Shown here one piece after another: positions 22,895 to 38,587 of a stretch of 64,000 nucleotides of DNA (the first letter of the stretch is position 1; the number at the start of each line of letters is the position of its first letter). The translations under genes and the position numbers were made by a program. Below the pieces are notes generated by a model. That model did no database searches, was not told where the DNA came from, and worked only from the letters and a program-made list of their open reading frames with translations. The DNA comes from a virus (taxonomy: Duplodnaviria; Caudoviricetes). The stretch spans positions 96,001 to 160,000 of the IMG/VR virus record IMGVR_UViG_3300017917_003016; one strand, 5' to 3'.

Positions 22895-23377
22895 ATGAAA
22901 AAAACAATAACCTACCTCGCTCTACTCGCCTCTGCACAGGTTGCTCAGGCGGCAGAGTTGGTACATCAATTTAACAGCCCGGCATTCAGTGGAGCCGGCT
23001 ACAGTGCTCACGTACTTACCGTTAAACAATTAGAAGATCAAGCCAAAGAAAAAAATCACGCTGCAGCCGAAGCCATAAAAGCAAAAGCAGAACAGGAAGC
23101 AGCCAATACTCCCCAGGCACGTTTTATTGCTAATCTAGAATCACGTATCTATAGTCAATTGGCTAAACAATTGACCGATACTATGTTTGGTGAAGGCGCG
23201 ACCTGTACAACCACTGGGGTTATTTGTGGTACTATTGACAACTTAGGTGGCAATAGTATTAGTTGGATGTTGGGTGCCGGCAGCGATGCAGGAAATATAA
23301 TTATAACAATTAGAGACCTTAATAATACTAGTAATATTACAACAATGAAGGTCCCTGCCGGTACGTTTTACTTTTAA
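22895..23377 (+). CDS. csgF: curli assembly protein CsgF
   Basis: Signal peptide AQA-AELV; HQFNSPAFSG; F..NLESRIYSQLAKQL. Confidence 0.85.
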   Translation: MKKTITYLALLASAQVAQAAELVHQFNSPAFSGAGYSAHVLTVKQLEDQAKEKNHAAAEAIKAKAEQEAANTPQARFIANLESRIYSQLAKQLTDTMFGEGATCTTTGVICGTIDNLGGNSISWMLGAGSDAGNIIITIRDLNNTSNITTMKVPAGTFYF

Positions 23378-23386
23378 GGATGCTAG

Positions 23387-24265
23387 ATGAAAAGATCAAT
23401 ACTTGCGATTGCAGTTCTGACTGCACTAACAGGGTGTGCTAGTTCTAGCGCACTTCGAGAAAAGGCCTTTGGTGAACAGTTTGACCCTCCTACTGTAGAG
23501 CGAGAAACATTTTTTACCAAAGCAGAAAATCAATTAGCGCCGCCGGCTAGTGGACCAATCCCTGTAGCAGTCTATAGTTTTACTGACCGCACTGGACAAC
23601 GTAAAAACATTCCTAACATTGCTAGTTTTTCAACAGCAGTGACACAAGGTGGAGAAGCCTATCTTATCAAGGCTCTTCAGGATGTTGGCAACGGTCGTTG
23701 GTTTACTGTATTAGAACGTGTGGGACTGGACAACCTCATTAAAGAACGTCAGATGATACGCCAAATGCGTGAGCAATATCAGGGACGCGATGCTAAACCA
23801 TTACCGCCAATGGTGTTTGCTGGCATGATTGTAGAAGGAGCAATCACAGGATACGACAGTAATAGTTTAACAGGCGGTAGCGGAGCAAGAATTTTAGGTA
23901 TTGGCGCACAGACACAGTACCAAAGCGATACTGTTACAGTTACCCTTAGAACTATCAGTGTTAATACAGGAGAAGTTTTAACCACTGTTACTGTTACAAA
24001 AACTGTGCTGAGTTATATGGACAAGTTTGGTGTACTTAAATTTGTCAGCGCAGGCGAGCGTGCTATAGAAGCAGAGGCCGGCATGAGCATAAACGAAAGC
24101 ATTAACAAGGCCACTAGTCTAGCGGTCAAAGCAGCAGTAGTAGAAACTATTCGAGAAGGTGTCCGTAAAGGATATTGGGCACACAAGGCAGACAATCAAG
24201 AATCTGCTGTCAAGGTCGTACCTTTGCCTGCAGAACCCGCAGTGCAAAGTGAACAATTAAATTAA
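23387..24265 (+). CDS. csgG: curli secretion channel CsgG (outer-membrane lipoprotein)
   Basis: Lipobox LTGC; VAVYSFTDRTGQRK, FSTAVTQG, WFTVLERVGLDNLIKERQ, EGAITGYDSN. Confidence 0.95.
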   Translation: MKRSILAIAVLTALTGCASSSALREKAFGEQFDPPTVERETFFTKAENQLAPPASGPIPVAVYSFTDRTGQRKNIPNIASFSTAVTQGGEAYLIKALQDVGNGRWFTVLERVGLDNLIKERQMIRQMREQYQGRDAKPLPPMVFAGMIVEGAITGYDSNSLTGGSGARILGIGAQTQYQSDTVTVTLRTISVNTGEVLTTVTVTKTVLSYMDKFGVLKFVSAGERAIEAEAGMSINESINKATSLAVKAAVVETIREGVRKGYWAHKADNQESAVKVVPLPAEPAVQSEQLN

Positions 24266-24277
24266 AGGAGCAAGGCA

Positions 24278-25057
24278 ATGAAACTAAAAACTTTAGTTAG
24301 TTTAGTCGCCCTAGTAGTAGCAGGATCGGCATATGCTGCCGGCGAAACCGGTCCAAACCGCGTGTATATTGAACAAATTGGTAACACTAACCTTATAACC
24401 ATTCAGCAGGTTGGTGGCACCAACGACGTTGGCGGTGTTGCAGGCAGTGCTAGTGTTGATGTAACAGGCGTAACAACCTTGACAGTTACAGCACCTAGTA
24501 CCAGTAACTACGCTACTATTAACGGCAGTAGTAACACAGTAACACTGACACAAACTGGTAGCAATAACCAAGCACAGTACAATATCAAAGGTGGTAACAA
24601 TACCTATACCAGCACAATGACTGGTAATAATAATCAAACCAAACTAACTGTGGGTTCTACCAATACCAACGGTTCACAAAATTCAATAACTGAAACTGCA
24701 ACCGGTAGCAGTAATATGTTTATCACTGATGTTGTAGGCAGTAGCAATACTTTGGCAACTACAGTAACTGGTAGTTCAAACCAAATTACTCAGAGTGTTT
24801 TAACTAGCAATGCTGACATTACTAATACTGTTAGTGGTAGCAACAATATTTTTAATATTCAACAACGTGATGCTGCAGGCAGTGCTGGACACAGTCTGAC
24901 CATGGCAACCACAGGTGACTACAATAGCATTACCACTCAGCAGCAAGGTACTAATGACACCACTGTTAATATTTCTACTCAAGGTGATCACAATACCATC
25001 ACAGTTCGTACTAGCAGCACTAGTATATTAAACTCAGCCACAGCCATAGCGAGGTAA
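24278..25057 (+). CDS. secreted curlin-repeat protein (CsgA/CsgB-like)
   Basis: Sec signal; repeated Q/T-x-G-(S/N)-(S/N)-N beta-arc units throughout. Confidence 0.8.
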   Translation: MKLKTLVSLVALVVAGSAYAAGETGPNRVYIEQIGNTNLITIQQVGGTNDVGGVAGSASVDVTGVTTLTVTAPSTSNYATINGSSNTVTLTQTGSNNQAQYNIKGGNNTYTSTMTGNNNQTKLTVGSTNTNGSQNSITETATGSSNMFITDVVGSSNTLATTVTGSSNQITQSVLTSNADITNTVSGSNNIFNIQQRDAAGSAGHSLTMATTGDYNSITTQQQGTNDTTVNISTQGDHNTITVRTSSTSILNSATAIAR

Positions 25058-25060
25058 GCC

Positions 25061-26146
25061 GTGAGGGCTTATCTTGCTGCGGCATTGCTGTTAGCCAGCG
25101 TTGGGGCATGGGCAGGCATAGGTGTAGTCAGTGACACCAAGGGATCTGCCTGTGCAATCGAACGTGCTAAAAAATCATTACCTGGAGACAAAGGTGCAGC
25201 CGTTGAATCAATGGACACCTATGTTACCGGTGGGTGTGTGAGTAACATAACCTTTAATGACGACACTCGGGTTAAAATAACAGAAAACAGTAGACTGCTA
25301 ATCGATGATTTTGTGTTTGATCCCAAAAAGAGCGATGCAGGCAAGTTGGCCTTAAAAGTTTCCATGGGCACGGTTCGGTATGCCAGCGGGCAAATAGCCA
25401 AGAACAATCCACAGCGAGTTGATATTAAAACACCCAGTGCTACTATTGCAGTGCGCGGTACTGATTTTAACATGACTGTTGATGAAACCGGTCAGAGTCT
25501 TGTGATTCTTGTACCTAGTTGTAGAGACAAAGACAAGGTCAAAGAGTATGAATTAGAGGAAAATACCTGTAAAGTAGGAAAGATTGAGGTGACCACCCTG
25601 GCGGGAACTGTGAGTCTGGACAAGGCGTTTGAAGCAACATATGTGGTCAATGCCACAGTACCGCCCACACCTCCGGTAGTGCTAAACACAGTAGAAGGTA
25701 AGATTAGTAATCTACTGATTATTTCTGGGCCGCCTGAAATTCAGCGAATGATGAAGGACAACAGTAAGGCCCGCAAAGAGCAAGAAGATTGGGAAGCCGA
25801 ACAGGCCAGACAGATAGCACAACGTATAAAAGAAGGTCAGCACGAAGAGACTCCTAAAGTAGTTTCCTACACATTTGACAATGGAAAAACCGGATGTAAC
25901 CCTTCTACTAGTATTTGTGTGCGTTGGGAAAAACCCGACGGAGAAACCATACAGGATCGAGGCAAGGGTACTGCCTTTCGCTCAAATGCAGATCACTATG
26001 CAGAAGTCAAAACTCTAGGCTATGACAGCAACACTTCTCTAACCATTACTCACGATGACAGTGTAGCCACAGCACAGATTGGCAGCGGTGATTTTGGAGG
26101 CAACGTAGTTAACATCAAACAAACTACCGGAGTTCTAAGAAAATGA
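25061..26146 (+). CDS. exported FecR-domain protein
   Basis: Signal peptide; F.D.T.V...ENS.L.IDDF, G..RYASG, TP.ATIAVRGTDF. Confidence 0.85.
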   Translation: MRAYLAAALLLASVGAWAGIGVVSDTKGSACAIERAKKSLPGDKGAAVESMDTYVTGGCVSNITFNDDTRVKITENSRLLIDDFVFDPKKSDAGKLALKVSMGTVRYASGQIAKNNPQRVDIKTPSATIAVRGTDFNMTVDETGQSLVILVPSCRDKDKVKEYELEENTCKVGKIEVTTLAGTVSLDKAFEATYVVNATVPPTPPVVLNTVEGKISNLLIISGPPEIQRMMKDNSKARKEQEDWEAEQARQIAQRIKEGQHEETPKVVSYTFDNGKTGCNPSTSICVRWEKPDGETIQDRGKGTAFRSNADHYAEVKTLGYDSNTSLTITHDDSVATAQIGSGDFGGNVVNIKQTTGVLRK

Positions 26147-27558
26147 AGTTCGTTATCGGTCTGATATTTTTGTTACTGTCTTCACTAGCACAGGCTCAAG
26201 ACCTCAGTTGGGAATCGGGTACACTCAATGGTTGGACTGTGGGTGGCGGTAGTTCAAGTTCTGTTAAATCATCAGGTTGGAGTTCAAACGGCATAGGTGC
26301 AGCAGTCAGTGGCGGTCTTACTAACTATTCTCCAGGCGGCGGCAAAACCTGGACTATTGCTCCCTATGGTACTTACATGGGTAGCCTGCAGCCAGGCAAC
26401 GGTTCGGTAACATTCGATACTGCTGTGTCAAATCTTGGATTAAGCAGCACAGAAAACACTGCAATAAAAAGTTATCTAAGTTATCAGGCCAGCAACGGCG
26501 GCGGTGGGAACCCTACACCAACTAACGCTACATGGATCAAACAAACTGTGGCACTCACAGCAGGGCAGACCTATACCATTGCATGGAACTATCTATCAAC
26601 AGATTACACTCCTTGGAACGACGGTTCTATGATAACGCTGACTCATACTACCAATGCCAATATCACTCCAACCCTAAATAACAAACAGCAAAGATATGGA
26701 CTATTGGGATTTACCAATCCGGGAACTGGTGAATATGCCACAGGTTCATACGGTAGTACCGGCTGGCAAGTGGCCGTGTTTACAGTGCCAGAAACAGGCA
26801 ACTATGTCTTAGGTTTTGCATCATTTAATCTAGGCGACACTGCACTAAGTCCTATTTTGTTTGTTGATCAATTGCAGGGTGTTACTACACTAAATGGTCA
26901 AAGTTTTGGTCCTGTTGCACCTAATCCTGGCAGCACAGCACCAACTGCACCTTCCGGTGGTGGCAGTTCTTTGTGCTGTGGCGGAAGTTCAGCAAGTTTT
27001 ACCATGGATGCAGACAAAGCAGCCAGTGTCAACGCATTTAAAAATCGTACCACAGCAGACAGTAAGGTCTACGTAGATCAAATTGGCAATGGCAATACTA
27101 TCACTGTTCAGCAAACGGGCACTAAAAATAACTATGCAGAATACAACGGCAATGGTAGTTCTAATACGGTAAACATAACTCAAAGCGGAACTGCAGCCAC
27201 AGAAGCCAACTATACAAGACTAGATATTATTGGCAACAGCAACACTGTCAATCTAACACAGACCAGCACTGGTGGGACTAAAAGTGTATTTGCCAGTATA
27301 AACAATAACAATAATTCAGTAACCATATTACAAAAAGACGCCGGCAGTCATCACCTAGATCTTACCTTAAGCGGTGGTGGCAAAACTGTAGACATCACAC
27401 AACAAGGATCTGCAGCACACATGGCAGACATTACCCTCACAGGCGCAGGTTCACGCAGCCTTACCTTGACTCAGCAGGGCAGTACTCAGCAATTCTACAG
27501 TATTAACAGCAGTTGTGCTTCAAGTTGTCAGGCCATAACCGTCACACAAGGACAATAA
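26143..27558 (+). CDS. secreted two-domain protein: N-terminal beta-sandwich-like domain plus C-terminal curlin repeats
   Basis: Signal peptide; P/S/G linker; VYVDQIGNGNTITVQQTG matches VYIEQIGNTNLITIQQVG of 24278. Confidence 0.75.
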   Translation: MKFVIGLIFLLLSSLAQAQDLSWESGTLNGWTVGGGSSSSVKSSGWSSNGIGAAVSGGLTNYSPGGGKTWTIAPYGTYMGSLQPGNGSVTFDTAVSNLGLSSTENTAIKSYLSYQASNGGGGNPTPTNATWIKQTVALTAGQTYTIAWNYLSTDYTPWNDGSMITLTHTTNANITPTLNNKQQRYGLLGFTNPGTGEYATGSYGSTGWQVAVFTVPETGNYVLGFASFNLGDTALSPILFVDQLQGVTTLNGQSFGPVAPNPGSTAPTAPSGGGSSLCCGGSSASFTMDADKAASVNAFKNRTTADSKVYVDQIGNGNTITVQQTGTKNNYAEYNGNGSSNTVNITQSGTAATEANYTRLDIIGNSNTVNLTQTSTGGTKSVFASINNNNNSVTILQKDAGSHHLDLTLSGGGKTVDITQQGSAAHMADITLTGAGSRSLTLTQQGSTQQFYSINSSCASSCQAITVTQGQ

Positions 27559-27580
27559 ATATCTAGTGGAGGACCACAAA

Positions 27581-27661
27581 ATGAGTTGGACTAATCACAA
27601 AACGCCCACACCAAAAGTACCACCAAGCCAATCAAAACCACCGCACCAGCCTAATCGTTGA
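27581..27661 (+). CDS. putative 26-aa Pro/Lys-rich micropeptide MSWTNHKTPTPKVPPSQSKPPHQPNR
   Basis: GGAGG RBS at 27568-72; stop codon lies inside the operon terminator. Confidence 0.4.
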   Translation: MSWTNHKTPTPKVPPSQSKPPHQPNR

Positions 27662-27673
27662 TTAGGCTTTTTT
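27648..27673 (+). terminator. intrinsic terminator closing the curli operon
   Basis: agcctaatc-gtt-gattaggct followed by a T-run. Confidence 0.8.
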
Positions 27674-27796
27674 AATGGTTTTACGCATGGTTTTTAGGGG
27701 TTTTAGGCCATATACTGTGTATAAGTAATTGTGTAACAGTATTCATTGTTATACGGTTACGAGACAACTTTAGTTTTTTATAAAGGAGAAATAAAC

Positions 27797-27868
27797 ATGT
27801 GGACCAAACCCGCTGCTCAAGACAAGCGTTTCGGTTTTGAAGTAACCATGTATATTGCTGCTCGCTAA
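27797..27868 (+). CDS. pqqA: pyrroloquinoline quinone precursor peptide PqqA (MWTKPAAQDKRFGFEVTMYIAAR)
   Basis: 23 aa; MWxKP...R(F/L)G(F/L)EVT(M/L)Y signature with E-x3-Y; AAGGAG RBS; own terminator. Confidence 0.93.
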   Translation: MWTKPAAQDKRFGFEVTMYIAAR

Positions 27869-27885
27869 TCGAGTAACAAGTACTG

Positions 27886-27912
27886 AAAAGCCCGCCTAGT
27901 GCGGGCTTTTTT
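27886..27912 (+). terminator. intrinsic terminator after pqqA
   Basis: aaaagcccgc-ctagt-gcgggctttttt. Confidence 0.9.
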
Positions 27913-27955
27913 ATTGATATTTTATCAAATAAATATTATTGAATTTCAATAACAC

Positions 27956-28852
27956 ATGACTCGATATTCTTCCTATCATGAATTTGATCAAGATACAAAA
28001 AACTTACCAAGAATAAGTTATCTTGAGACCATGCTGACCTATGCTTGCACACTGAGTTGTCGCAGTTGTACAAACTACAGCGACTACGGTATGAAAGGTG
28101 GGCATGTCAAATGGTCTACAGCGAAACCGTGGTTAGATGCATGGTTTGATCGTATACGAGTGGACTGCTTTGGTTTTATTGGTGGCGAACCTCTAATGAA
28201 TCCAGAATTAGAAACATGGATTAGAGAATTTCGTAAAAACTATCCATTTACTACAATTATGATTGTAACCAATGCTCAACTGTTTACAAAAAATCTTTGG
28301 ATACTAGATGTTATGGAAGAACTAGGTATGATTTACCTTAAGTTCACTAATCACATTCCCAAAGCCAAATATTTTACCAAAGCGGTGGATACAGTATTAT
28401 CTAGATTTCCGTGGGAATATAAACCCGAGTGGGAAAGGTATTTTTATCAAGAAAAAATTCTAGACTTTCTTGTTAGTGAATCACCAACTTTTATGAAAAC
28501 CTATCGGGGTGAGTATGGTTCAATGAAACCCTACAACAACGATCCACAACAGGCATTTAAGATTTGTAATCAACAAATTTGTCCTCTTCTTTATAACGGT
28601 CGCCTCTACAAGTGTAGCAGCCTAGGTATGCTATCGAGAGTTTTACAAGACCACGGCCAAGTTGACGATCCTGACTGGCAACCGTTTGTGCAAAATCAAG
28701 GATTGGATTTAAGTTGTTCTGATGAAGAATTGCGAGCATGGGCTGATAATTTTGGTAAGCCTATTAAAGAATGTAGGATGTGCCCAACAGAGAAAGATAA
28801 ACCTTTTCATTCTCACTATGACACAGTTGTTAATAGAATTAACATTTTTTAA
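27956..28852 (+). CDS. radical SAM protein with C-terminal Cys cluster (twitch/SPASM-like)
   Basis: CTLSCRSC, GGEPLMNP, TNA; C-terminal CNQQIC...YKCS...ECRMCP. Confidence 0.85.
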   Translation: MTRYSSYHEFDQDTKNLPRISYLETMLTYACTLSCRSCTNYSDYGMKGGHVKWSTAKPWLDAWFDRIRVDCFGFIGGEPLMNPELETWIREFRKNYPFTTIMIVTNAQLFTKNLWILDVMEELGMIYLKFTNHIPKAKYFTKAVDTVLSRFPWEYKPEWERYFYQEKILDFLVSESPTFMKTYRGEYGSMKPYNNDPQQAFKICNQQICPLLYNGRLYKCSSLGMLSRVLQDHGQVDDPDWQPFVQNQGLDLSCSDEELRAWADNFGKPIKECRMCPTEKDKPFHSHYDTVVNRINIF

Positions 28853-28943
28853 TAGAAATCACATGTGATTTTTTGGACAAGTATAAATAAAATGTATGGT
28901 TGATACAAGTCAACGTAAGTATTACAATAGGCGTTATACAAAG

Positions 28944-29069
28944 ATGAACACAAATCTTAACCTAAGACCAACACAGCCCAAAACACTAACCAGTGTTGTA
29001 GCATCCTATTGGTCACAGTTTGAGAGTCTAAATTGCGATCGCAGCATTGGCGGGGGGGTTCTAGGTTAA
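28944..29069 (+). CDS. 41-aa leader peptide of a putative transcription attenuator
   Basis: MNTNLNLRPTQPKTLTSVVASYWSQFESLNCDRSIGGGVLG; follows late promoter 28882; its last codons overlap the antiterminator arm. Confidence 0.6.
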   Translation: MNTNLNLRPTQPKTLTSVVASYWSQFESLNCDRSIGGGVLG

Positions 29070-29128
29070 CGGTATAGCAGCACATGCACACTAACTTAGG
29101 ACCCTGGACAGAAAATCCAGGGTTTTTT
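29056..29128 (+). terminator. conditional terminator with overlapping antiterminator
   Basis: Terminator accctgga-cagaaaa-tccagggt+T-run (29101-29128); mutually exclusive 13-bp helix 29056-68/29092-104. Confidence 0.75.
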
Positions 29129-29151
29129 GTTTTGTGCAGTAGAAAAAGAGG

Positions 29152-29180
29152 TTGACACTGGCGCAGATTAGTACTATACT
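29152..29180 (+). promoter_or_regulatory. sigma70-type promoter for the ncRNA/tRNA array
   Basis: TTGACA-17-TATACT. Confidence 0.85.
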
Positions 29181-29189
29181 GTGCAACAT

Positions 29190-29957
29190 GTTAACTAAAC
29201 ATGCGGTTGTAAGGTGTGGTGGGTAACGAGGACCCAGACAGCACTCTAAACATTGTCAAACGGGCGGAGGCTGGGAGTCACAACAAACAGTCAGGGTACA
29301 GACGGTGTACCCACTATACATAAGCACACTGAAGGGCATTACCGCGTGTCTAACACTGCCCGATGAGTTAGACCAGTGTGCTTATGTATAGTGAAATCAG
29401 TTTTGGGGAGGGCACCTCCGTGACGGGAGGTTTTGATCGCCAGTGCAGTTGGGTCCCGGGTTAGTGGACAGAAAGACTGCCCTGCGTCACCAGAGTGCAC
29501 ATCAAGCGCCTCTCCAACCCTTTTATGAGGCTGCAGCCTCATATACGGAAGATGAGTAAACTCGAGTAAAACTCATCAAGGCACAAACAGCGGAGGCGTA
29601 TCGTCCCTCCCATGCTGAACCTGACAGCCTGGAAAGACAGGCACTATAGATAAGTGCTGTCAAGGGTATCGTTACGGGACGCCGTAACTATGCGGGCCTA
29701 ACTGGCGTGGAACAGGTCCTGATATAACCGCTATACGCTGTGGGATGGAAGCACCAGACCCCTAAATTGGCAAGACAGCACTTTTCTATAGTTTTCAAAA
29801 ACTATAAATCTGCACGGTAGCGAAAGGAGTCTAGTCAACTCGCCCACCTGCAAGGGTAGTACATATGCCATCCCTGGCCCTGCTGACCCAGGATAACCCA
29901 GGTGACACCAGAGCCGCTTACATGAGGCTCACGCAGGGTGCAGATCTATAGTTTTTT
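29190..29957 (+). ncRNA. large structured non-coding RNA region of unknown class (several discrete domains)
   Basis: No credible ORF; GC-richer than flanks; many long helices: 29312-31/29374-93, 29403-11/29509-17, 29622-62 three-way junction, 29797-815/29938-56. Confidence 0.7.
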
Positions 29958-30045
29958 GGAAGTGCGGCTCAGATGGCGGATGGGCACCGGACTGTAAATT
30001 CGGCACACAGAAACGCAGTAGGTTCGAATCCTACCACTTCCACCA
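29958..30045 (+). tRNA. tRNA-Tyr(GTA)
   Basis: Cloverleaf with long variable arm, encoded CCA. Confidence 0.93.
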
Positions 30046-30048
30046 TTC

Positions 30049-30190
30049 AATGACGACCGGCTAAATCTGCGGAGTGCAGGCCCAGGTTGGGGGTGATACG
30101 CCACTCAAGTTCCAACCCGTCATTTATCAAAAAGGGAGAGCGTTGAGCATGAAACCATGCCTGCTCTTAAACGACAATGACTGCGTCCCT
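30049..30190 (+). ncRNA. two small structured RNA modules between tRNA-Tyr and tRNA-Glu
   Basis: aatgacg/cgtcatt closing helix with inner ggttggg/tccaacc and possible gagtg/cactc pseudoknot; aggga/tccct closing helix with gcatg-aaac-catgc hairpin. Confidence 0.5.
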
Positions 30191-30200
30191 AGAGATTCCC

Positions 30201-30278
30201 GTCCCTATAGATTACGATTGGTTAGATCATCACCCTTTCAAGGTGAAGAACCGGGATCGTCGCCCGGTAGGGACGCCA
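30201..30278 (+). tRNA. tRNA-Glu(TTC)
   Basis: Cloverleaf, CCA; atypical T-loop. Confidence 0.9.
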
Positions 30279-30284
30279 GTTTTA

Positions 30285-30373
30285 GGAGAGTTGCCAGAGT
30301 GGTAATGGAGCGGATTGCTAATCCGTCGTTTGCGAAAGCAGGCGCATTGGTTCGAATCCAATACTCTCCGCCA
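30285..30373 (+). tRNA. tRNA-Ser(GCT)
   Basis: Long variable arm, G73, CCA. Confidence 0.95.
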
Positions 30374-30378
30374 AGTAT

Positions 30379-30455
30379 GGTCTGTTAGAATAGTGGCCTA
30401 ATTCGCCTGCCTGTCACGCAGGAGATCAGGGGTTCAAATCCCCTACAGACCGCCA
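30379..30455 (+). tRNA. tRNA-Asp(GTC)
   Basis: Cloverleaf, CCA. Confidence 0.95.
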
Positions 30456-30457
30456 TT

Positions 30458-30532
30458 TGCCGCGTAGCTCAGAGGAAGAGCAATCGGTTGATAACCGATA
30501 GGTCGACATTTCAAAACTGTCCGTGGCAACCA
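30458..30532 (+). tRNA. tRNA-Ile(GAT)
   Basis: Cloverleaf, CCA; one T-stem mismatch. Confidence 0.88.
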
Positions 30533-30537
30533 ATTAT

Positions 30538-30611
30538 TGGGGTATGGTGAAATGGTATCACACAGGATTTTGATTCCCGTGTTCTTGGTTCGATTCCAAG
30601 TACCCCTGCCA
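30538..30611 (+). tRNA. tRNA-Gln(TTG)
   Basis: Cloverleaf, CCA. Confidence 0.92.
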
Positions 30612-30612
30612 A

Positions 30613-30688
30613 GGTAATGTAGCACAGCGGGAAGTGCAGCGTCTTCATATGTCGCAGGTCGTTGGTTCAAATCCAACCATTACCACCA
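30613..30688 (+). tRNA. tRNA-Met(CAT), probably elongator
   Basis: Cloverleaf, paired 1:72, CCA. Confidence 0.85.
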
Positions 30689-30692
30689 AAAT

Positions 30693-30769
30693 ACGCCTGT
30701 AGTTCAGCGGAATAGAACACTGGTCTACGAAACCAGAGGTCGGTGGTTTGAATCCACCCAGGTGTGCCA
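30693..30769 (+). tRNA. tRNA-Arg(ACG)
   Basis: Cloverleaf, CCA. Confidence 0.93.
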
Positions 30770-30835
30770 AATTTACTGATCAGTAAATTTACAGTTAAAA
30801 CTAACTGAATTAGTAAAATTATTACTGATCAGTAA
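30769..30835. repeat. array of AT-rich palindromes with ACTGATCAGT core
   Basis: 22-bp perfect palindrome 30769-90, degenerate copy about 30801-16, 14-bp perfect palindrome 30822-35. Confidence 0.85.
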
Positions 30836-30842
30836 ATTTTAT

Positions 30843-30917
30843 GGTGTCTGTAGTGTAGCGGCAACACTCAAGATTGTGGATCTTGCATCATGAGTTCGAA
30901 CCTCATCGGGCACCCCA
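30843..30917 (+). tRNA. tRNA-His(GTG)
   Basis: G-1:C73, CCA. Confidence 0.93.
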
Positions 30918-30918
30918 C

Positions 30919-30947
30919 TTGACAATTGGTCAGTTTACAGTTATAAT
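30919..30947 (+). promoter_or_regulatory. sigma70-type promoter
   Basis: TTGACA-17-TATAAT. Confidence 0.88.
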
Positions 30948-30970
30948 TATGAAAATTTAAAGGAGGCAAC

Positions 30971-31528
30971 ATGCCAGCAACATTTTTGGTCAGCGACACG
31001 CATTTTGGTCACGCTGGCGTCTGCCGATTCCTGCGTGAGGATGGTACTAAACTCAGACCATTTGACACGCCCGAAGACATGGACGAATTCATGATCAAGG
31101 CGTGGAACGACCGTGTTAAGCCTAACGACAAGGTCTACCATCTCGGTGATGTGGTCATTAACCGCAAGTCTCTCAAAACTCTTGCTCGCCTTAACGGTGA
31201 CAAAGTGCTTATCAAGGGTAACCACGATATCTTTGCACTAGAGGATTATACCACCTACTTTAGAGATATTCGCGGTTATCACGTCATGAATGGCATGATC
31301 CTTAGTCATATCCCTGTGCATGCAGACAGTCTTGCACGTTTTGGTACCAACATTCACGGACATCTGCACGCCAATCGTGTCATGAAAGATGGAGTTATTG
31401 ATCCAAGATACCACTGTGTTTGTGTAGAGCACACCGACTATGCTCCTATACTGTTTGAGGATGTAATCAAACGTATTCTAGAAGAAGGCGGCAGTGTGGG
31501 TTTTAGGAACGGCAACGGTCCACTTTAA
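30971..31528 (+). CDS. calcineurin-like phosphoesterase
   Basis: SDTHFGH, HLGDV, KGNHD, LSHIP, HGHLH. Confidence 0.9.
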   Translation: MPATFLVSDTHFGHAGVCRFLREDGTKLRPFDTPEDMDEFMIKAWNDRVKPNDKVYHLGDVVINRKSLKTLARLNGDKVLIKGNHDIFALEDYTTYFRDIRGYHVMNGMILSHIPVHADSLARFGTNIHGHLHANRVMKDGVIDPRYHCVCVEHTDYAPILFEDVIKRILEEGGSVGFRNGNGPL

Positions 31529-32541
31529 TAGGCCAGCAGATTTCTTGCTGGCCTAATCCAATCAGTCATTAGAAAATGCTGCTTGTTGTGATCTAATACA
31601 GGTTGCAACCTTTCAATTATTTGTCTGGGGTTCTGTTGACAAAGATATTCAACCTGCTGCCACGCTAGTTTGAATCGTGTTTGATCATTGGCATGGTCAT
31701 CATAACTTTCATCGATTACACTACTAAAAGTTTGAAAACCTAATTTTTTTAGATTTCTTAGATAGTGTTGACCTGCAAACACAACAAAAGGTCTTAATGC
31801 TACTATAGGTTTTGCAACTTTTTCTGTAAAATGACTGTATTCGTTTGTGGATATGGTCTCGGCAACAACGGAGTAGTAACTGTTGTTATAGATATCAGTG
31901 GGTATCATAGCACTGACGCGAGCGTCCTCATCGTCAATTTTAAATTGATTAGAAGTAAGAGGTACTCCAAGTTTTGAAGGATGATATTTTGAATCCCATA
32001 GACCATTTTCTATGCGGTATTTAAAATAAGAAAAAATAATTTGATCTTTATACGGACTAGTCTGATATAACTTTTCAATAAAATCTCTATGAGTTTTTGT
32101 TGAGCCCAAAAGACAATCAAACATTTTTGGTCTATCATAGGTATGATTTAGTTGCCCTAGTAATTTTTTAGCCCAGTTAGCAGTAGCATAGTAATTAACA
32201 TGATCAATGAACCAACAGACTAAAGGTAAACATCTAGCATGATTTAGATTAAAATTGAGAATTGTATCACTAAAAAAAATTATTTTTTCGTAGTCATTGG
32301 CTTTGATAAAATCAGCATAGTTAGTTGATTCGTTATGCACTGCTTCATTGTTATAGACAAAAAGTCTGGTACACCTGTTCAACAAATGGTTGATGATCTC
32401 AGACTGCTGATCATAGTCATAGGTATAAAAATCGATGGCAATCGTATCGGCTGATCTATCAAATTTGATAAAATCATCAGGTTCAATAAGATGATGTTCT
32501 TGTTGATTAAACTGCCAAAAAAAGGGTCCGGAATAAATCAT
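31525..32541 (-). CDS. glycosyltransferase-like phage family protein (paralog 2 of 3)
   Basis: YSVVAETI...FTEKVAKPI...GFQTFSSVIDESYD. Confidence 0.7.
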   Translation of the reverse strand: MIYSGPFFWQFNQQEHHLIEPDDFIKFDRSADTIAIDFYTYDYDQQSEIINHLLNRCTRLFVYNNEAVHNESTNYADFIKANDYEKIIFFSDTILNFNLNHARCLPLVCWFIDHVNYYATANWAKKLLGQLNHTYDRPKMFDCLLGSTKTHRDFIEKLYQTSPYKDQIIFSYFKYRIENGLWDSKYHPSKLGVPLTSNQFKIDDEDARVSAMIPTDIYNNSYYSVVAETISTNEYSHFTEKVAKPIVALRPFVVFAGQHYLRNLKKLGFQTFSSVIDESYDDHANDQTRFKLAWQQVEYLCQQNPRQIIERLQPVLDHNKQHFLMTDWIRPARNLLAY

Positions 32542-32592
32542 ACAGAATATTTAGCAAGTGTCAAGAGTCTCTATCCCTTATAAATATTTGAA

Positions 32593-33099
32593 ATGAAAAG
32601 ATACTTTTGGATCATAGCATTTTTATTGTCTCCTGCTAGAGCATCTGATACTATTGATTTTGATAAATTATCGCGAGAGACATTTGATCTATATCCTATA
32701 AAAGTAGAATATAGTCAACCTCCTTTAGAACGCATTTCTCCACAGGAACTACATCAATGGATCTGCGGAGACAAATGTCCTGAAGGCATTGAAGTCAAAG
32801 GAGTGTACTTCCAAGGAACAATTTATTTGATTGATAATATTGTTACCTGGGACGACTGGGAAAAAAGTCTTTATGTACATGAGGTCGTGCACTATATACA
32901 GGATTTGATAGGCAAAACTACCAGATCTGGTAGAGAACCATGTACAAATCATCTGGCATTAGAACTAGAAGCCTATAGCCTACAAAGTCAATGGCTCAGG
33001 CAACACGGAAAATTTATCAAACATTCAGACATAGTTGATCTAGCCAGGGCAAGTGCAGCCAGAGGCTGCAAAAAAACAGTTGACACTGTAAAAAAGTGA
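32593..33099 (+). CDS. exported HExxH protein (paralog of 35553-36047)
   Basis: Signal peptide; YVHEVVHYIQ ... ELEAY..Q. Confidence 0.65.
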   Translation: MKRYFWIIAFLLSPARASDTIDFDKLSRETFDLYPIKVEYSQPPLERISPQELHQWICGDKCPEGIEVKGVYFQGTIYLIDNIVTWDDWEKSLYVHEVVHYIQDLIGKTTRSGREPCTNHLALELEAYSLQSQWLRQHGKFIKHSDIVDLARASAARGCKKTVDTVKK

Positions 33100-33108
33100 C
33101 TATATAAT
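33080..33108 (+). promoter_or_regulatory. sigma70-type promoter for the second tRNA block
   Basis: TTGACA-17-TATAAT. Confidence 0.88.
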
Positions 33109-33153
33109 AGATGTATTGGTTAGACACGTTCATTAAAAATTTAGCAGTTCAGT

Positions 33154-33228
33154 CGCGGGATAGTGAAATGGCATCACGGTGGTCTCATAAGCCACAGTTC
33201 CTAGTTCGAATCTAGGTCTCCGCAACCA
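33154..33228 (+). tRNA. tRNA-Met(CAT), initiator-like
   Basis: C1:A72 mismatch; lacks the 3GC anticodon-stem pairs; CCA. Confidence 0.8.
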
Positions 33229-33234
33229 GATTTT

Positions 33235-33309
33235 GCCGCGTTAGCACAGTGGTAGTGCAACGGTTTTGTAAACCGTAGGTCGTCTGTTCGAATCAGACAC
33301 GCGGCACCA
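33235..33309 (+). tRNA. tRNA-Thr(TGT)
   Basis: Cloverleaf, CCA. Confidence 0.95.
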
Positions 33310-33316
33310 GATTATT

Positions 33317-33399
33317 GCCCGGGTGGTGGAATTGGTAGACACGCTGGTCTTAGAAGCCAGTGCTTCGGCGTAAGTGTTCGAGTCTCTTCTTGGGCACCA
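33317..33399 (+). tRNA. tRNA-Leu(TAG)
   Basis: Long variable arm, CCA. Confidence 0.92.
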
Positions 33400-33406
33400 A
33401 AGTTTT

Positions 33407-33480
33407 GCGGCGTTCGTAAAATGGTATTACCTTAGCCTTCCAAGCTAAAGTCGCGAGTTCGATTCTCGCACGCCGCTCCA
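33407..33480 (+). tRNA. tRNA-Gly(TCC)
   Basis: Cloverleaf, U73, CCA. Confidence 0.95.
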
Positions 33481-33484
33481 AGTT

Positions 33485-33575
33485 TCACATAAGTCAGATG
33501 AAGATGATGCCGTTGAAAGCGTGTGAAGATAGTGGACGATAAAACTTTAATTATAGCAGTACACTGGCTTATGTG
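33485..33575 (+). ncRNA. putative small RNA closed by a 13-bp stem
   Basis: tcacataagtcag/ctggcttatgtga; shares ACATAAG/CTTATGT with the 29312-29393 stem. Confidence 0.5.
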
Positions 33576-33579
33576 ATTT

Positions 33580-33655
33580 GGGGGTGTAGCTCAGTTGGGA
33601 GAGCGCCAGCTTTGCAAGCTGGATGTCGCAAGTTCGATCCTTGTCACCTCCACCA
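33580..33655 (+). tRNA. tRNA-Ala(TGC)
   Basis: G3:U70, CCA. Confidence 0.96.
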
Positions 33656-33662
33656 AATTTCT

Positions 33663-33738
33663 GCGGGCGTAACTCAGTTGGGAGAGTGCAACCTTGCCAA
33701 GGTTGATGTCGAGAGTTCGAACCTCTTCGCCCGCTCCA
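33663..33738 (+). tRNA. tRNA-Gly(GCC)
   Basis: Cloverleaf, CCA. Confidence 0.96.
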
Positions 33739-33745
33739 TGTTTTT

Positions 33746-33821
33746 GGAAGGTTAGCTCAGTTGGTAGAGCATCGCCCTTACAAGGCGAGGGTCACTGGTT
33801 CGAGCCCAGTACCTTCCACCA
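33746..33821 (+). tRNA. tRNA-Val(TAC)
   Basis: Cloverleaf, CCA. Confidence 0.96.
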
Positions 33822-33826
33822 AACAC

Positions 33827-34036
33827 TACCGTGTCCTGACGGTTTATCAGGAGGTTGTGAGTATAGGTTGGCCAAACCTTCCAGAAACTCTCAGGTGCTC
33901 TGTCCACCTTAAGGCTACAGCGTAGACGTAGGCCCTGCGATAACGGCCCGCAGGTGTGATGTTCCTCTAGAGTGAACATACGGACAGGGTAACAACTCAG
34001 TTAGGGGCCATGGTGGTGCAGGTAGCCTAACACTGA
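33827..34036 (+). ncRNA. approximately 210-nt structured RNA between tRNA-Val and tRNA-Asn
   Basis: taccgtgtcc/ggacagggta closing helix, tcctga-cggttta-tcagga hairpin, 3' tcag-ttagg/cctaa-ctga domain; no ORF with an RBS. Confidence 0.55.
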
Positions 34037-34040
34037 CACT

Positions 34041-34117
34041 TCCCCGATAGCTCAGTTGGTAGTAGCAATGGACTGTTAATCCATGTGTCCCTGGTTCGAG
34101 CCCAGGTCGGGGAGCCA
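34041..34117 (+). tRNA. tRNA-Asn(GTT)
   Basis: Cloverleaf, CCA. Confidence 0.95.
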
Positions 34118-34122
34118 TTATT

Positions 34123-34199
34123 CGGACATTAGCGCAGCCCGGTAGCGCATCTGCTTTGGGAGCAGAGGGTCGTAGGTTCGAATCCTACATGTCCGACCA
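34123..34199 (+). tRNA. tRNA-Pro(TGG)
   Basis: Cloverleaf, CCA. Confidence 0.96.
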
Positions 34200-34224
34200 T
34201 TTTTAATTTAACTAAAGGTAATGT

Positions 34225-34695
34225 ATGCAAAAACTTGACTTTGACGAAGTGCGGACGTTTATTCAGCAGCAAAGCCCAGAAACCAAAATCTACATTGGTG
34301 GCGATAGTCGTAGATTTCGTAAGGACAATACCTGGCATGCTGAATACACCCTTGCTGTTGTAGTTCATATCGATGGCAAGCATGGCTGCAAGATTTTTGG
34401 TGAGTCTTGCATTGAGCGTGATTTTGATCAACGTCGAGACCGCCCTAGCATGCGTCTTATGAATGAAGTCTACAAGATTAGTGAACTTTACCTTAAGTTA
34501 CACGAAGTTTTAGAAGATCGTGATGTTGAAGTACACCTAGATATTAACCCCAATGAAATGTACGGCAGTAGTTGTGTGGTACAACAGGCAGTGGGTTATA
34601 TTCGTGGTGTATGTAATGTTGTACCAATGGTTAAGCCTCGTGCGTTTGCTGCCAGTTACGCCGCAGACAGACTCAAGGAGGTATTGGCAGCATAA
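34225..34695 (+). CDS. RNase H-like YkuK-family protein
   Basis: KIYIGGDS, RLMNEVYK, EVHLDIN, KP.AFAASYAAD. Confidence 0.8.
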   Translation: MQKLDFDEVRTFIQQQSPETKIYIGGDSRRFRKDNTWHAEYTLAVVVHIDGKHGCKIFGESCIERDFDQRRDRPSMRLMNEVYKISELYLKLHEVLEDRDVEVHLDINPNEMYGSSCVVQQAVGYIRGVCNVVPMVKPRAFAASYAADRLKEVLAA

Positions 34696-34703
34696 AAGTT
34701 TAC

Positions 34704-34779
34704 GGGACGGTAGCTCAGTTGGTAGAGCAGCGGACTTTTAATCCGTTGGTCGCGAGTTCGAACCTCGCTCGTCCTACCA
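34704..34779 (+). tRNA. tRNA-Lys(TTT)
   Basis: Cloverleaf, CCA. Confidence 0.96.
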
Positions 34780-34799
34780 ATATTAAAGGAGATCACAAA

Positions 34800-34982
34800 A
34801 TGAAAACGGTGGTTTTTAAAAATCGAAGATCAAATGAAAAATTTGTCTGCGACAACGTCCGTGATGTCCGTGTGATTGAAGGAGTTGAATATCTACAGGT
34901 ACATCGTCCGGACAATCCTAGAAACTTTTTGATGCGTAAAGATGCACTAGAAAGGGTAGAATCATCCCGCTTGCCGCGTTAG
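34800..34982 (+). CDS. hypothetical protein (60 aa)
   Basis: AAGGAG RBS, ATG 34800. Confidence 0.7.
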   Translation: MKTVVFKNRRSNEKFVCDNVRDVRVIEGVEYLQVHRPDNPRNFLMRKDALERVESSRLPR

Positions 34983-35324
34983 GAAGTTGGCTCGCATGCT
35001 CTTTGGTTTGAAATATTCACGCACAACTTCTTTGACAATATCTATGCTGAATTCTTTGCAACTAAAAACGTCTAGATATAGATCGCCGGTTGAATCTATA
35101 AAGTGTGCAACAATACTGGATGTAACTATGATCTGCACAGCAGTGAATCCTGCTTTGTCGGGTTGATCTCCTGCTGTGTATTCTATCCAAGGTGTGCCAA
35201 TTGGCTCCATGTCAATTCTTTGCACTAGTTCTTCGATAAAGTTTTTAACATTCCATTTTTCCATGATCAGTGCACGGTTGCAGTCATGACAGTCTAATGT
35301 TAGATGATAACCCCAAAAACTCAT
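34962..35324 (-). CDS. speD: S-adenosylmethionine decarboxylase proenzyme
   Basis: WGYHL.LDC; G.TAVQII.TSSI.AH (putative autocleavage Ser); YLDVFSCK.F. Confidence 0.85.
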   Translation of the reverse strand: MSFWGYHLTLDCHDCNRALIMEKWNVKNFIEELVQRIDMEPIGTPWIEYTAGDQPDKAGFTAVQIIVTSSIVAHFIDSTGDLYLDVFSCKEFSIDIVKEVVREYFKPKSMRANFLTRQAG

Positions 35325-35395
35325 TGATGTCTCCTTGACATAGAATTCGTAAGAAAGTATAGTTATTTATTGTGCAGAGCAAAAAGTTAGATATA

Positions 35396-35469
35396 CCCGG
35401 TGTAGTTTAATGGTAGAACCGCAGCCTCCAAATCTGCATGTGGGAGTTCGATTCTCTCCACCGGGCCCA
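35396..35469 (+). tRNA. tRNA-Trp(CCA)
   Basis: Cloverleaf, CCA; unusual C73 and one anticodon-stem mismatch. Confidence 0.8.
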
Positions 35470-35474
35470 TTTAT

Positions 35475-35552
35475 GTAGAGGTGGCAGAGTGGCCCAATGC
35501 AAGGGATTGCAAATCCCTAAAACCGTGAGTTCGAATCTCACCCTCTACTCCA
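35475..35552 (+). tRNA. tRNA-Cys(GCA)
   Basis: U73, CCA. Confidence 0.93.
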
Positions 35553-36047
35553 TTACCTGCACTGTTCTATTAGATTGGGCACTGCAAACCCTGTACTACC
35601 GTGTTTTTTCAAAAAATTACTCTGTGCGGTATAGGCATGCTGTTCGCTCTTAGCCCAGTGTAGGCAGTCTGGTTCATTTTTAAACAAATTGTTTTTTACC
35701 TGAGCCCAGTGTACTAATTCATGAAATACCACACTGGCAGTGAATAGGTTAATCTGCAGCAATGCTGGACTGATCAGTATCTCACCAGTCTCGTCGTCTG
35801 TGATAGCAGCCACATGACAGTCATGATTGACATCTTTGCAGTAGGCTGCTTCTATGGCCTGCCTGCTGGCTAGATAAACTTTGGGTTGTTCTTTAGGCAA
35901 AGGTAATCTGGTTATTTCAGTTATTTCTGTCATCAAAGGTCTGATCAGATTCTCATACATAATTGGCGGAATTGGAGTCTTAGAAATTTCTTGTGCATGG
36001 CTCCGGGCTGTGACCAGCAGCGCCAGGAGGAATATAATTTTTTTCAT
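35553..36047 (-). CDS. exported HExxH protein (paralog of 32593-33099)
   Basis: Signal peptide; VFHELVHWAQ ... EQHAY.AQ. Confidence 0.65.
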   Translation of the reverse strand: MKKIIFLLALLVTARSHAQEISKTPIPPIMYENLIRPLMTEITEITRLPLPKEQPKVYLASRQAIEAAYCKDVNHDCHVAAITDDETGEILISPALLQINLFTASVVFHELVHWAQVKNNLFKNEPDCLHWAKSEQHAYTAQSNFLKKHGSTGFAVPNLIEQCR

Positions 36048-36078
36048 TTTAATTCCAAGTATCTACATACTTATGCTA

Positions 36079-36155
36079 GCCCCCGTAGCTCAGTGGACCA
36101 GAGCGGTGCGCTTCGAACGCACGGGTCGGGAGTTCGAATCTCTCCGGGGGCTCCA
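36079..36155 (+). tRNA. tRNA-Arg(TCG)
   Basis: Cloverleaf, CCA. Confidence 0.93.
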
Positions 36156-36214
36156 AATAAATAACTGTTGACAGCGGTTTAATGTATTTGATTTGATTTT
36201 TCATAAATAAAATT

Positions 36215-36850
36215 ATGCATACTTGTTTATACTGTCAAAAAAATTTTACTAACCTGGGTGGTTTGGGGGCGCATCACCCTTATTGTAAATCTAACCCAGA
36301 AAGAAAACAGCGTACAAAATCTCCCAATGCACATCGTAAAAAAGGTTCAATACCCTGGAACAAAGGGTTATCTATAGAAACTGATCAAAGAATAAAACCA
36401 AGATTAGAACTACAAGGTAAAAGATTTGGTGCTTCGTTAAACGGTCACAGTGAAGAGACTAAGAAAAAACTATCAGAAATCGCCAAAGAACGTAAATTAG
36501 GTGGATATGTAAAAGGCTCCGGAAGAGGTAAAAAAGGCTGGTACAAAGGATTTTTTTGCGACAGTAGTTGGGAACTTGCCTATGTAATTTATTGTTTAGA
36601 ACACGGTATAGATATTAAAAGAAATACAGAAATCAGAGAATACATATGGAAAGGGCAAGTTAAAAAATATATTCCTGATTTTAATGTACAAGGTGTAATA
36701 ACTGAAATTAAGGGTTACAAGACAGAACAATGGCTAGCAAAATTAAAAGCAAATATTGATGTAAAAGTCTTGTATGAAAAAGATTTAGAGTATATAATAG
36801 AGTATGTTAGTAGCAAATACGGTAAAGATTTTGTAAAGTTGTACGAGTAA
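36215..36850 (+). mobile_element. free-standing homing-endonuclease-like gene (Zn finger, NUMOD3-like motif, PD-(D/E)XK/TnsA-like domain)
   Basis: CLYC...H...C; HSEETKKKLSE; DSSWELAY...YIPDF...EIKGY. Confidence 0.7.
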
Positions 36851-36855
36851 TGTTT

Positions 36856-36946
36856 GGAGGGGCAAACCGATTGGTGACGGTACCTGTCTTGAAAACAGTT
36901 GAGCGTTAATAGCGCCTTGGGGGTTCGACTCCGCCTCCCTCCGCCA
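36856..36946 (+). tRNA. tRNA-Ser(TGA)
   Basis: Long variable arm, CCA. Confidence 0.92.
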
Positions 36947-36961
36947 ATTTTATGAGGCTGT

Positions 36962-37582
36962 ATGATTAAACTGCTAGGAAAACTACCGCGAGAAATTTGG
37001 GTAGCCTGCTCAGGTGGTGTCGATAGTCTTGCTGCTGTAGATTTTCTCAAAAACAATCATCGCGTTAGTGTGGTTTTTGTGCATCATGGCACAGAAGCCA
37101 GCGACCAAGGCATGATCAAAGTCTGCGAATATGCAGACACACACGCACTGCCGGTAGTGGTAAAATACATCGATACCCATCGGCCGCGCCAGCAAAGTCA
37201 GGAAGAATACTGGCGTCGAGAACGCTATGAGTTTTTTGATGAATTGCACAACGAATGGCCGTTGGTCACTGCACATCATCTAGATGACTGTGTGGAAACT
37301 TATGTATGGAGTATGTGTCATGGCCGCGGCAAGGTAATTCCCCATCGTCGTGGTCGCGTGATTAGGCCGTTTCTTCTTAACTCTAAACAGGAATTGATTG
37401 ATTGGGCTGAACTGCATGGCCTGTCCTGGCATGATGATGCCAGCAATCACGATATTAAGTATACACGCAATCTTGTACGACACGAAGTACTTCCACAGGT
37501 TCTACGGGTCAACCCCGGCATCGCACAAGTTGTGCGCAGGATTGTTAAAGATAATTTTGATCTTGACAGGCATCAATACTGA
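36962..37582 (+). CDS. tilS: tRNA(Ile)-lysidine synthetase, catalytic domain only
   Basis: ACSGGVDS, R..RY, TAHHLDD..ET, RPFL, D.SN....YTRN..RH. Confidence 0.9.
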   Translation: MIKLLGKLPREIWVACSGGVDSLAAVDFLKNNHRVSVVFVHHGTEASDQGMIKVCEYADTHALPVVVKYIDTHRPRQQSQEEYWRRERYEFFDELHNEWPLVTAHHLDDCVETYVWSMCHGRGKVIPHRRGRVIRPFLLNSKQELIDWAELHGLSWHDDASNHDIKYTRNLVRHEVLPQVLRVNPGIAQVVRRIVKDNFDLDRHQY

Positions 37583-37591
37583 ATATATACT
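37563..37591 (+). promoter_or_regulatory. sigma70-type promoter overlapping the tilS 3' end
   Basis: TTGACA-17-TATACT. Confidence 0.8.
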
Positions 37592-38586: not shown

Positions 38587-38587
38587 A

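Follow-up and report, generated by a model that had tools for sequence, protein, structure and literature searches.

The window analysed here is a stretch of 64,000 nucleotides from a 201.7-kb IMG/VR virus record. At the head of its tRNA region lies a short open reading frame (ORF), the leader, between a promoter and an intrinsic terminator (Table 1). The first-pass annotation had placed a late promoter, TATAAATA, at 28882, a 41-codon ORF at 28944-29069, a terminator at 29101-29128, a 13-bp pairing of the end of the ORF with 29092-29104, and a separate sigma-70 promoter at 29152. All of these were found again: the motif is present on the plus strand, the ORF runs from an ATG at 28944 to its TAA at 29067-29069, the terminator was independently picked up by a pattern scan, two of the 13 base pairs of the helix are G-U, and the separate promoter matches at 11 of 12 positions. 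The last codons of the ORF and part of its stop (segment B) pair with segment C. The triplet CCC (29102-29104) is common to C and the terminator 5' arm, and the last 3-4 nt of C (CCCT, 29102-29105) form the base of that arm. Folding of 29040-29135 with RNAfold forms the B:C helix (z = -3.6 vs shuffled sequences). The terminator stem can be extended by AGGA:TTTT pairs from 29098.

Table 1 Features of the leader locus in the window, and variant terminator stems among its relatives
Feature	Position	Strand	Remarks
TATAAATA, T4-type late-promoter motif	28882-28889	+	from the sequence; enriched in the window
Sigma-70-like promoter TTGATA-17-TACAAT	28900-28928	+	counterpart of GTTGACA-17-TACAAT in relatives
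Leader ORF, 41 codons + TAA	28944-29069	+	19/20 amino acids, His absent
Trp codon TGG	29010-29012	+	position fixed in 56/56 occupied alignment cells
Segment B, GGGTTCTAGGTTA	29056-29068 (29055 in the parts list)	+	antiterminator 5' strand; last codons, overlapping the stop codon
Segment C, TAACTTAGGACCC	29092-29104 (to 29105 in the parts list)	+	antiterminator 3' strand; pairs with B
Intrinsic terminator	29102-29128	+	CCCTGGA (29102-29108), loop CAGAAAA (29109-29115), TCCAGGG (29116-29122), six T (29123-29128)
Sigma-70-type promoter TTGACA-17-TATACT	29152-29180	+	specific to this phage
Conserved RNA block AACGAGGACCC..GCACT..AAACGGGCGGA	29226-29300	+	after the terminator or small ORF in relatives
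First tRNA block: Tyr, Glu, Ser, Asp, Ile, Gln, Met, Arg, His	29958-30917	+	
Sigma-70-type promoters, 11-12 of 12	30919-30947, 33080-33108, 35335-35363, 37563-37591	+	before successive tRNA blocks or genes
Variant terminator stem CCTCGGA/TCCGAGG			L089, B = TTCGAGG
Variant terminator stem GCCTCTAAA/TTTAGGGGC			L198, B = GAGGC
Variant terminator stem GCCCCGGA/TCCGGGGC			L215 (GCCCCGGA arm), B = GGGGC
Variant terminator arm CAGAGCC			L206, B = GGTTCTG
Variant terminator stem CCTCAAG/CTTGAGG			promoter-anchored scan
Variant terminator stem CCCTAGG/CCTAGGG			promoter-anchored scan
Variant terminator stem CCCTGAG/CTCAGGG			promoter-anchored scan
Variant terminator stem GCCTCTAA/TTAGGGGC			promoter-anchored scan

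The window has 11 copies of the motif TATAAATA, where 4.6 are expected; most are on the plus strand and just 5' of ORFs, and because of this enrichment and placement its use as a T4-type late promoter is plausible. The late start predicted from it (~28895) coincides with an alternative in-frame ATG at 28896, from which the leader would have 57 codons. Absent from the first-pass annotation is a sigma-70-like promoter at 28900-28928, the position that is conserved in relatives; its predicted start (~28935) lies 9 nt before the ATG at 28944. The second sigma-70-type promoter, at 29152-29180, is an insertion between the terminator and the conserved RNA block downstream. A run of seven G is found at 29052-29058, at the end of the leader ORF. 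A TAG of the +1 frame (29062-29064) is also inside B, and with one G more or fewer the frame would still end within B.

Upstream of the leader, a 23-codon ORF, MWTKPAAQDKRFGFEVTMYIAAR (27797-27868, plus strand), scores 33.1 bits with the PqqA precursor model TIGR02107 (cut-off 20), and is equipped with a good ribosome-binding site and a terminator of its own (27885-27911). The gene that follows (27956-28852) encodes a radical SAM protein, for which the PqqE model is not reached (17 bits vs 381). The leader as a RiPP precursor for this radical SAM enzyme was considered and rejected; the genes upstream of the leader differ in relatives (an AhpD-like gene in the locus L088). Elsewhere, at 18732-20648, 22895-27558 and 38833-40851, the window encodes a full-length Hsp70/DnaK (Pfam E = 3e-257), a FecR-domain protein, a curlin-repeat protein and a CHASE2-adenylate/guanylate cyclase. 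Pelagibacter phage HTVC008M and Methylophilales phage Melnitz have counterparts of the FecR-like and CHASE2-cyclase proteins, at 38-45% identity. The distance from FecR to the cyclase is ~2 kb in Melnitz; here the two are separated by the radical SAM gene, the leader and the entire tRNA region. ARAGORN also predicts a permuted tmRNA with a 29-residue tag at 56844-57399 (plus strand).

Relatives of the leader were collected by combining two scans, one with the exact pattern of the terminator and the other anchored on the promoter and blind to the terminator. Together they provide 88 distinct leaders from uncultured T4-like phages, the presence of the ORF and of a Trp being among the criteria for membership; the pattern matches that were excluded look unrelated. 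All family statistics given here take the members as independent, with shared ancestry uncorrected. The relatives present one anatomy: a strong promoter, a frame of 27-54 codons that is always open, the helix B:C enclosing the stop, and an intrinsic terminator. The arrangement seen in the window is beyond chance because it recurs in 88 distinct relatives, and both the ORF and the antiterminator, whose loss in related phages would have spoken against the first-pass proposal, are conserved.

The flanking protein genes helped little in the search for relatives. At least 597 relatives of the phosphoesterase gene, which lies inside the tRNA region, are in IMG/VR. In one of these loci, L088, the same layout stands before tRNA-Tyr: TTGACA-17-TACAAT with TATAAATA in its spacer, a 42-codon ORF, an identical terminator, and a B:C helix in which the distal part is of different sequence with its pairing kept. 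The radical SAM neighbour led to one truncated locus only, and the loci found through the curlin-repeat neighbour are without the leader element. Searching deposited phage genomes by blastn with the window leader and two relatives found no match. Comparison of 27500-40000 with Rfam (cmscan, E <= 1) found no match within 28880-29135 to leader families such as Trp_leader, Phe_leader and His_leader, T-box included; weak Rfam leader matches are located at another terminator (27832-27957). The MAFFT alignments (A1-A3) lost the register of B and C, and the pair statistics come from anchored scripts instead; RNAalifold on alignment A1 returned the terminator only.

The reading frame of the leader is preserved throughout. 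Among the 57 members from the terminator-anchored scan there is no stop in the leader frame, against 205 and 204 in the other two (about 3.6 each per sequence), and only one of the 57 has a second open frame. Indels between close relatives are in-frame. The leader is kept open and is also placed for translation, with a 5'-proximal ATG or a ribosome-binding site, and it is probably translated. Constraint on the peptide is weak, with a pooled pN/pS of ~0.55 and entropies of 1.45, 1.43 and 1.55 at the three codon positions; identical codons at some positions, together with this ratio, show RNA-level constraints that blur the coding signal. The TGG codon for Trp occupies every one of the 56 alignment cells; as Trp was an admission criterion, only its fixed position counts. 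A tRNA-Trp gene is present in most of the downstream arrays. The C-terminal motifs are those of subfamilies (NSDR, NSIPG, ECG, RTPE). Comparison of the leader peptide with Pfam, PHROG and NCBIfam found no match. Tested as a small-protein family or type I toxin, the peptides match no profile, and they are polar and varied, not hydrophobic and membrane-spanning.

The promoter conserved in the family is of sigma-70 type, GTTGACA-17-TACAAT with ATAAATA in the spacer, and matches at 11-12 of 12 positions. In 38 of 55 relatives ATAAATA is found no more than 75 nt 5' of the ATG. Where a promoter can be recognised (42 members), the distance from the end of the -10 element to the ATG is 6-10 nt in 38, and therefore the mRNA would be leaderless or nearly so. 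A subgroup with a 5' UTR of ~55 nt has an AAGGA-like ribosome-binding site. The leader promoter of the window (10/12 positions) is weaker and rearranged, with TATAAATA separated from the sigma-70-like promoter. The family promoter being sigma-70-type, the late gating proposed by the first-pass annotation is one possible route only.

To follow the relation between the antiterminator and the terminator, 65 distinct B/C combinations were put in register by the base of B that pairs with the final C of the shared triplet. Pairing is kept in 86-97% of them at positions 1-6 of B:C and in 74-86% at positions 9-12, each of the latter showing three or four pair types; between the two, positions 7-8 are often an internal loop. 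Choosing the best helix for each member favours pairing, a bias that is addressed by pairing each upstream region with the C of another member: the region that holds B scores a mean of 20.4 with its own C vs 13.9 with a foreign C, and the own-C score is the higher in 54 of 56 members. In nearly all members this best helix includes 3-7 nt of the terminator 5' arm, 4 nt being the commonest extent. The terminator stem itself varies with compensating substitutions across the relatives (Table 1). In the variant terminators B is altered in step, with the pairing to the shared bases kept. B:C therefore covaries while still reaching the terminator arm, the outcome that the first-pass annotation had asked related phages to provide. 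The three-way agreement of B, C and terminator stem argues that the helix competition itself is under selection.

An antiterminator that excludes the terminator, as proposed from the window, is supported: the competition between the two helices is conserved. Most members, though, have only ~3-4 nt of overlap, and much of both folds can form at the same time. Calculated with the U-tract omitted, the energy gap between the terminator state and the full B:C state is ~1.2 kcal/mol in 42 of 57 members. With so short an overlap and nearly equal energies, the effect is likely graded and kinetic; the switch is likely a short strand exchange at the stem base beside the U-tract. It may be that B:C does no more than tune a leaky terminator.

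From the stop codon to the base of the terminator, where the shared triplet lies, the distance is 31-34 nt (interquartile range). This spacing holds in both architectural classes, with the stop inside B or in a loop that B:C encloses, and in both a terminating ribosome would block the pairing of B. The trp/his-type four-segment geometry of the first-pass annotation did not hold, as a 1:2 anti-antiterminator is not conserved: upstream complementarity to B is at or below the level of shuffled sequences (mean z +0.37; p <= 0.05 in one of 57 members). A candidate A:B helix from the minimum-free-energy fold of the window (segment 1 at 28957-28968) was discarded, being at chance level (z = -1.37) and not conserved. 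With no conserved 1:2 helix, untranslated RNA would read through by default, unlike trp. Pairing of the A-rich terminator loop with the U-tract was also tried and is not general; some relatives have a longer, GAAA-capped hairpin.

The association of the leader with tRNA genes is constant. Same-strand tRNA genes are found downstream in all 61 members with at least 1.2 kb of sequence, the first at 111-2192 nt; no same-strand tRNA is found in the 2 kb upstream in 52 of 72 members, and some contigs have two cassettes. Mostly there is one cassette per tRNA region, and a subgroup of short leaders precedes small Cys/Trp/Gly/Glu arrays. Between the terminator and the first tRNA, 30 of 45 members have no promoter matching at 10 or more of 12 positions. 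A small ORF, its ATG preceded by a ribosome-binding site, begins ~5-40 nt past the T-run in 47 distinct relatives; in others a conserved RNA block comes directly after the terminator. Since there is mostly no intervening promoter and in many relatives a ribosome-binding site stands right after the T-run, read-through is needed for what lies downstream.

The post-terminator ORF encodes 50-60 conserved residues with the motif LTxEQ..LIxxKxERA (examples are L108:7261-7437, L122:3694-3849 on the minus strand and L080:3210-3380). It has no meaningful match in Pfam or PHROG, and no clear copy was found in the 201-kb record of this phage. The RNA block has the consensus AACGAGGNCC..GCACU..AACGGGCGGA..GGCGRNAAC hairpin and is found family-wide between the terminator and the first tRNA, including L088 (1106-1195); an Rfam search with the block of the window (29226-29300) found no match.

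ARAGORN finds 27 tRNA genes in the window, between 29958 and 38759. A consensus promoter lies 24 nt past the leader terminator, and a search for a further plus-strand intrinsic terminator of good score inside the tRNA region found none. Every tRNA block has its own consensus promoter, and for this reason the attenuator is not the main control of the tRNAs of this phage. Here the device can only add to the expression of the array, perhaps late in infection as first proposed. One of the tRNA genes, a tRNA-Ser (38669-38759, plus strand; ARAGORN), has the unusual anticodon ACT and an Rfam tRNA score of 55.6 bits. Related phages carry tRNAs with the anticodons CTA and TTA (L015 2920-2994 and 8065-8138; L020 6729-6803); these would read the stops TAG and TAA, and are possible candidate suppressor tRNAs.

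The composition of the leader bears on what it could sense. The first-pass annotation had noted a peptide with no run of one amino acid; such runs are absent from the leaders of the family, whose composition is instead maximally diverse. All 20 amino acids are present in 34 of the 88 leaders, in ~41 residues, where random dealing of the residues gives 1.5 on average and 7 at most; at least 19 are present in 54 of the 88 (9.1 expected, maximum 21). Leaders with at least 19 amino acids make up 61% of the family, vs 7.5% of 42-residue windows of real proteins on the same contigs. Distinct amino acids number 18.6 in the ~41 residues of a leader vs 16.3 in 54 residues of neighbouring small proteins, none of which has all 20. 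The diversity is seen also in the codons at least 13 nt 5' of B (17.5 distinct amino acids vs 15.25 in the control).

The amino acids of the leader show a slight relation to the tRNAs that follow. For the first 3, 5 and 8 tRNAs, the amino acids are covered slightly better by the actual leader than by leaders paired with arrays at random (p = 0.026, 0.001 and 0.015, kinship uncorrected). In arrays where at least 15 tRNAs were found, an amino acid is missing from the leader in 1.1% of cases if its tRNA is downstream vs 6.9% if it is not (p = 0.003, relatedness uncorrected). Taken alone, the window leader and its 19 amino acids do not reach significance (p = 0.12), and there is no enrichment among its codons for the anticodons of the phage (21 matches vs 19.3 expected, p = 0.34). 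That leaders hold nearly all amino acids supports the suggestion, already made from the window, that such a leader would sense decoding in general and not one amino acid.

These results point to a ribosome-dependent transcription attenuator at the head of the tRNA region that senses general decoding speed, a reading to which we assign a probability of about 0.65. Its core, a translated leader with a 3' antiterminator that would compete with the terminator before a tRNA array, was put forward by the first-pass annotation and is supported by the open frame, the covariation of B:C and the constant tRNA link. The promoter would give an RNA whose first feature is the short ORF, with almost no 5' leader. 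B, made of the last codons and the stop, would pair with C just 5' of the terminator, reaching 3-7 nt into the arm, at the pairs beside the U-tract. If the first ribosome keeps up with RNA polymerase and is at the stop codon, B would be held unpaired, the terminator would form, and termination would leave a leader RNA of ~190 nt. With no ribosome there, or with one that is late or stalled at any hungry codon, B:C would form first and compete for the base of the terminator stem; where it wins, more polymerases would read through into the RNA block and the tRNA genes. The leader would thus report the general supply of aminoacyl-tRNA, or decoding speed, and exert negative feedback on tRNA supply. 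The report would be general rather than for a single amino acid, since nearly all amino acids occur in the leader. How large the effect is, which way it goes and what it responds to are what we infer from the anatomy of the family.

Several features of the family would be left without a reason if the unit were an independent micro-gene, encoding a small protein or combining a coding with an RNA role, that has its own promoter and a leaky terminator and senses nothing. These are the 39% of leaders with all 20 amino acids in ~41 residues, the tracking of changes in the terminator arm by B, the constant spacing from stop to terminator, and the constant place before tRNA blocks; the peptide, moreover, is the one that matches nothing in Pfam, PHROG or NCBIfam. 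B:C would then just stabilise the 3' end or fix the level of read-through. We regard this reading as unlikely, even though the unit owns a strong promoter and a terminator, the Trp codon and Asn/Asp/Arg positions are conserved with a pN/pS (0.55) below 1, the array of the window has its own promoters, and the two folds can largely coexist.

The fate of the ribosome could instead be set by the peptide it makes. As with TnaC or SecM, the ribosome would be arrested through the invariant Trp and the N-S-D-R region in response to a small molecule or factor, and this would decide whether B:C or the terminator forms. The geometry suits this, as a ribosome stalled at D-R or I-P-G would leave B free, and a conserved D-R or I-P-G is found 9-13 residues past the Trp. 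TGG fills 56/56 cells though its RNA pairing partners vary by subfamily, but the Trp is at the same time a criterion by which the family was selected. The C-terminal motifs vary widely (from NSDR and NSIPG to ECG and RTPE), and third codon positions are fixed too (GAT, AAT, TAT, GCC), which argues for constraint at the nucleotide or codon level. A nascent-peptide sensor would also leave the amino-acid diversity unexplained, and we consider it improbable.

Least probable is a non-coding structured leader or tRNA-precursor processing signal, for example an RNase III-type helix of B:C stacked on the hairpin, with the ORF incidental: together, B:C and the hairpin do amount to 20-28 bp of quasi-continuous helix, interrupted by an internal loop at positions 7-8, and there are local conserved hairpins inside the ORF and conservation at the nucleotide level, but an incidental frame would not stay open in ~90 diverged sequences with ~3.6 stops in each of the other frames, the in-frame indels and the 5'-proximal ATG or ribosome-binding site would be unexpected, and no Rfam family matches.

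Comparison of the proposed attenuator with known systems places it near, and apart from, several of them. The leader-peptide attenuators of amino-acid operons in E. coli and Salmonella include trpL, hisL, pheL, leuL, thrL and ilvL. In common with the trpL/hisL type, the phage element has a short leader ORF, an intrinsic terminator before the genes that would be regulated, an antiterminator that shares bases with the terminator 5' arm, and a stop placed so that a ribosome would mask the 5' strand of the antiterminator. Unlike that type, the phage family has no conserved 1:2 anti-antiterminator or pause helix, and no run of codons for a single amino acid, nearly all 20 being sampled once or a few times. 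Its regulated genes would be tRNAs and not biosynthetic enzymes, its mRNA is nearly leaderless, its helices overlap by 3-7 nt only, and it matches no Rfam leader model.

Another parallel in logic is offered by leaders of the mgt type. The mgtL and mgtP leaders sense proline or ATP-linked signals, and mgtA acts through Rho. In these leader ORFs of Salmonella mgtA and mgtCBR, the coupling or uncoupling of leader translation selects one of two alternative stem-loops (PMC3641672). The phage element would share this two-state logic without a separate 1:2 element, the speed of leader translation picking the helix; it differs in its canonical intrinsic terminator, its nearly complete set of amino acids and the tRNA genes downstream. 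The likeness to T-box riboswitches is that tRNA status would decide between antiterminator and terminator upstream of translation-related genes. T-box riboswitches (RF00230) bind tRNA directly and are untranslated; the phage locus, unlike them, has an always-open ORF, and no T-box match was found there at E <= 1. As in TnaC and SecM, there is a short ORF with a Trp ~10-12 residues before the site where a ribosome would wait, and the position of the ribosome would control downstream expression. The tna system uses Rho and free tryptophan. The phage leader, unlike TnaC and SecM, has no sequence similarity to them, and arrest in it is only hypothetical.

Ideas on the reason for which phages carry tRNA genes, and on when these are used, include compensation for codon usage, replacement of degraded host tRNAs and escape from tRNA-cleaving defences. 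The first-pass annotation knew of no description of such a device for phage tRNA arrays, and our literature search likewise found no published description of this leader family or device. Most likely the leader allows more tRNA to be made when translation slows, a form of control not known to have been described for tRNA genes. Whether a widespread clade of uncultured T4-like phages with large tRNA sets measures global decoding capacity by way of a nearly leaderless 'test' ORF, and adjusts its own tRNA supply to it, is to us an evenly balanced proposition; such sensing would serve, for instance, when host tRNAs are degraded or are cleaved by defence nucleases. If the proposal is true, leader-peptide attenuation would extend to RNA genes, to a sensor of all amino acids and to nearly leaderless mRNAs. 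The element would also be a compact natural part that reports translation capacity, and the family makes ~90 natural variants with built-in compensatory changes available. For the phages themselves it would mean that a conserved cis-acting sensor stands before the arrays and that their tRNA supply is regulated by decoding speed.
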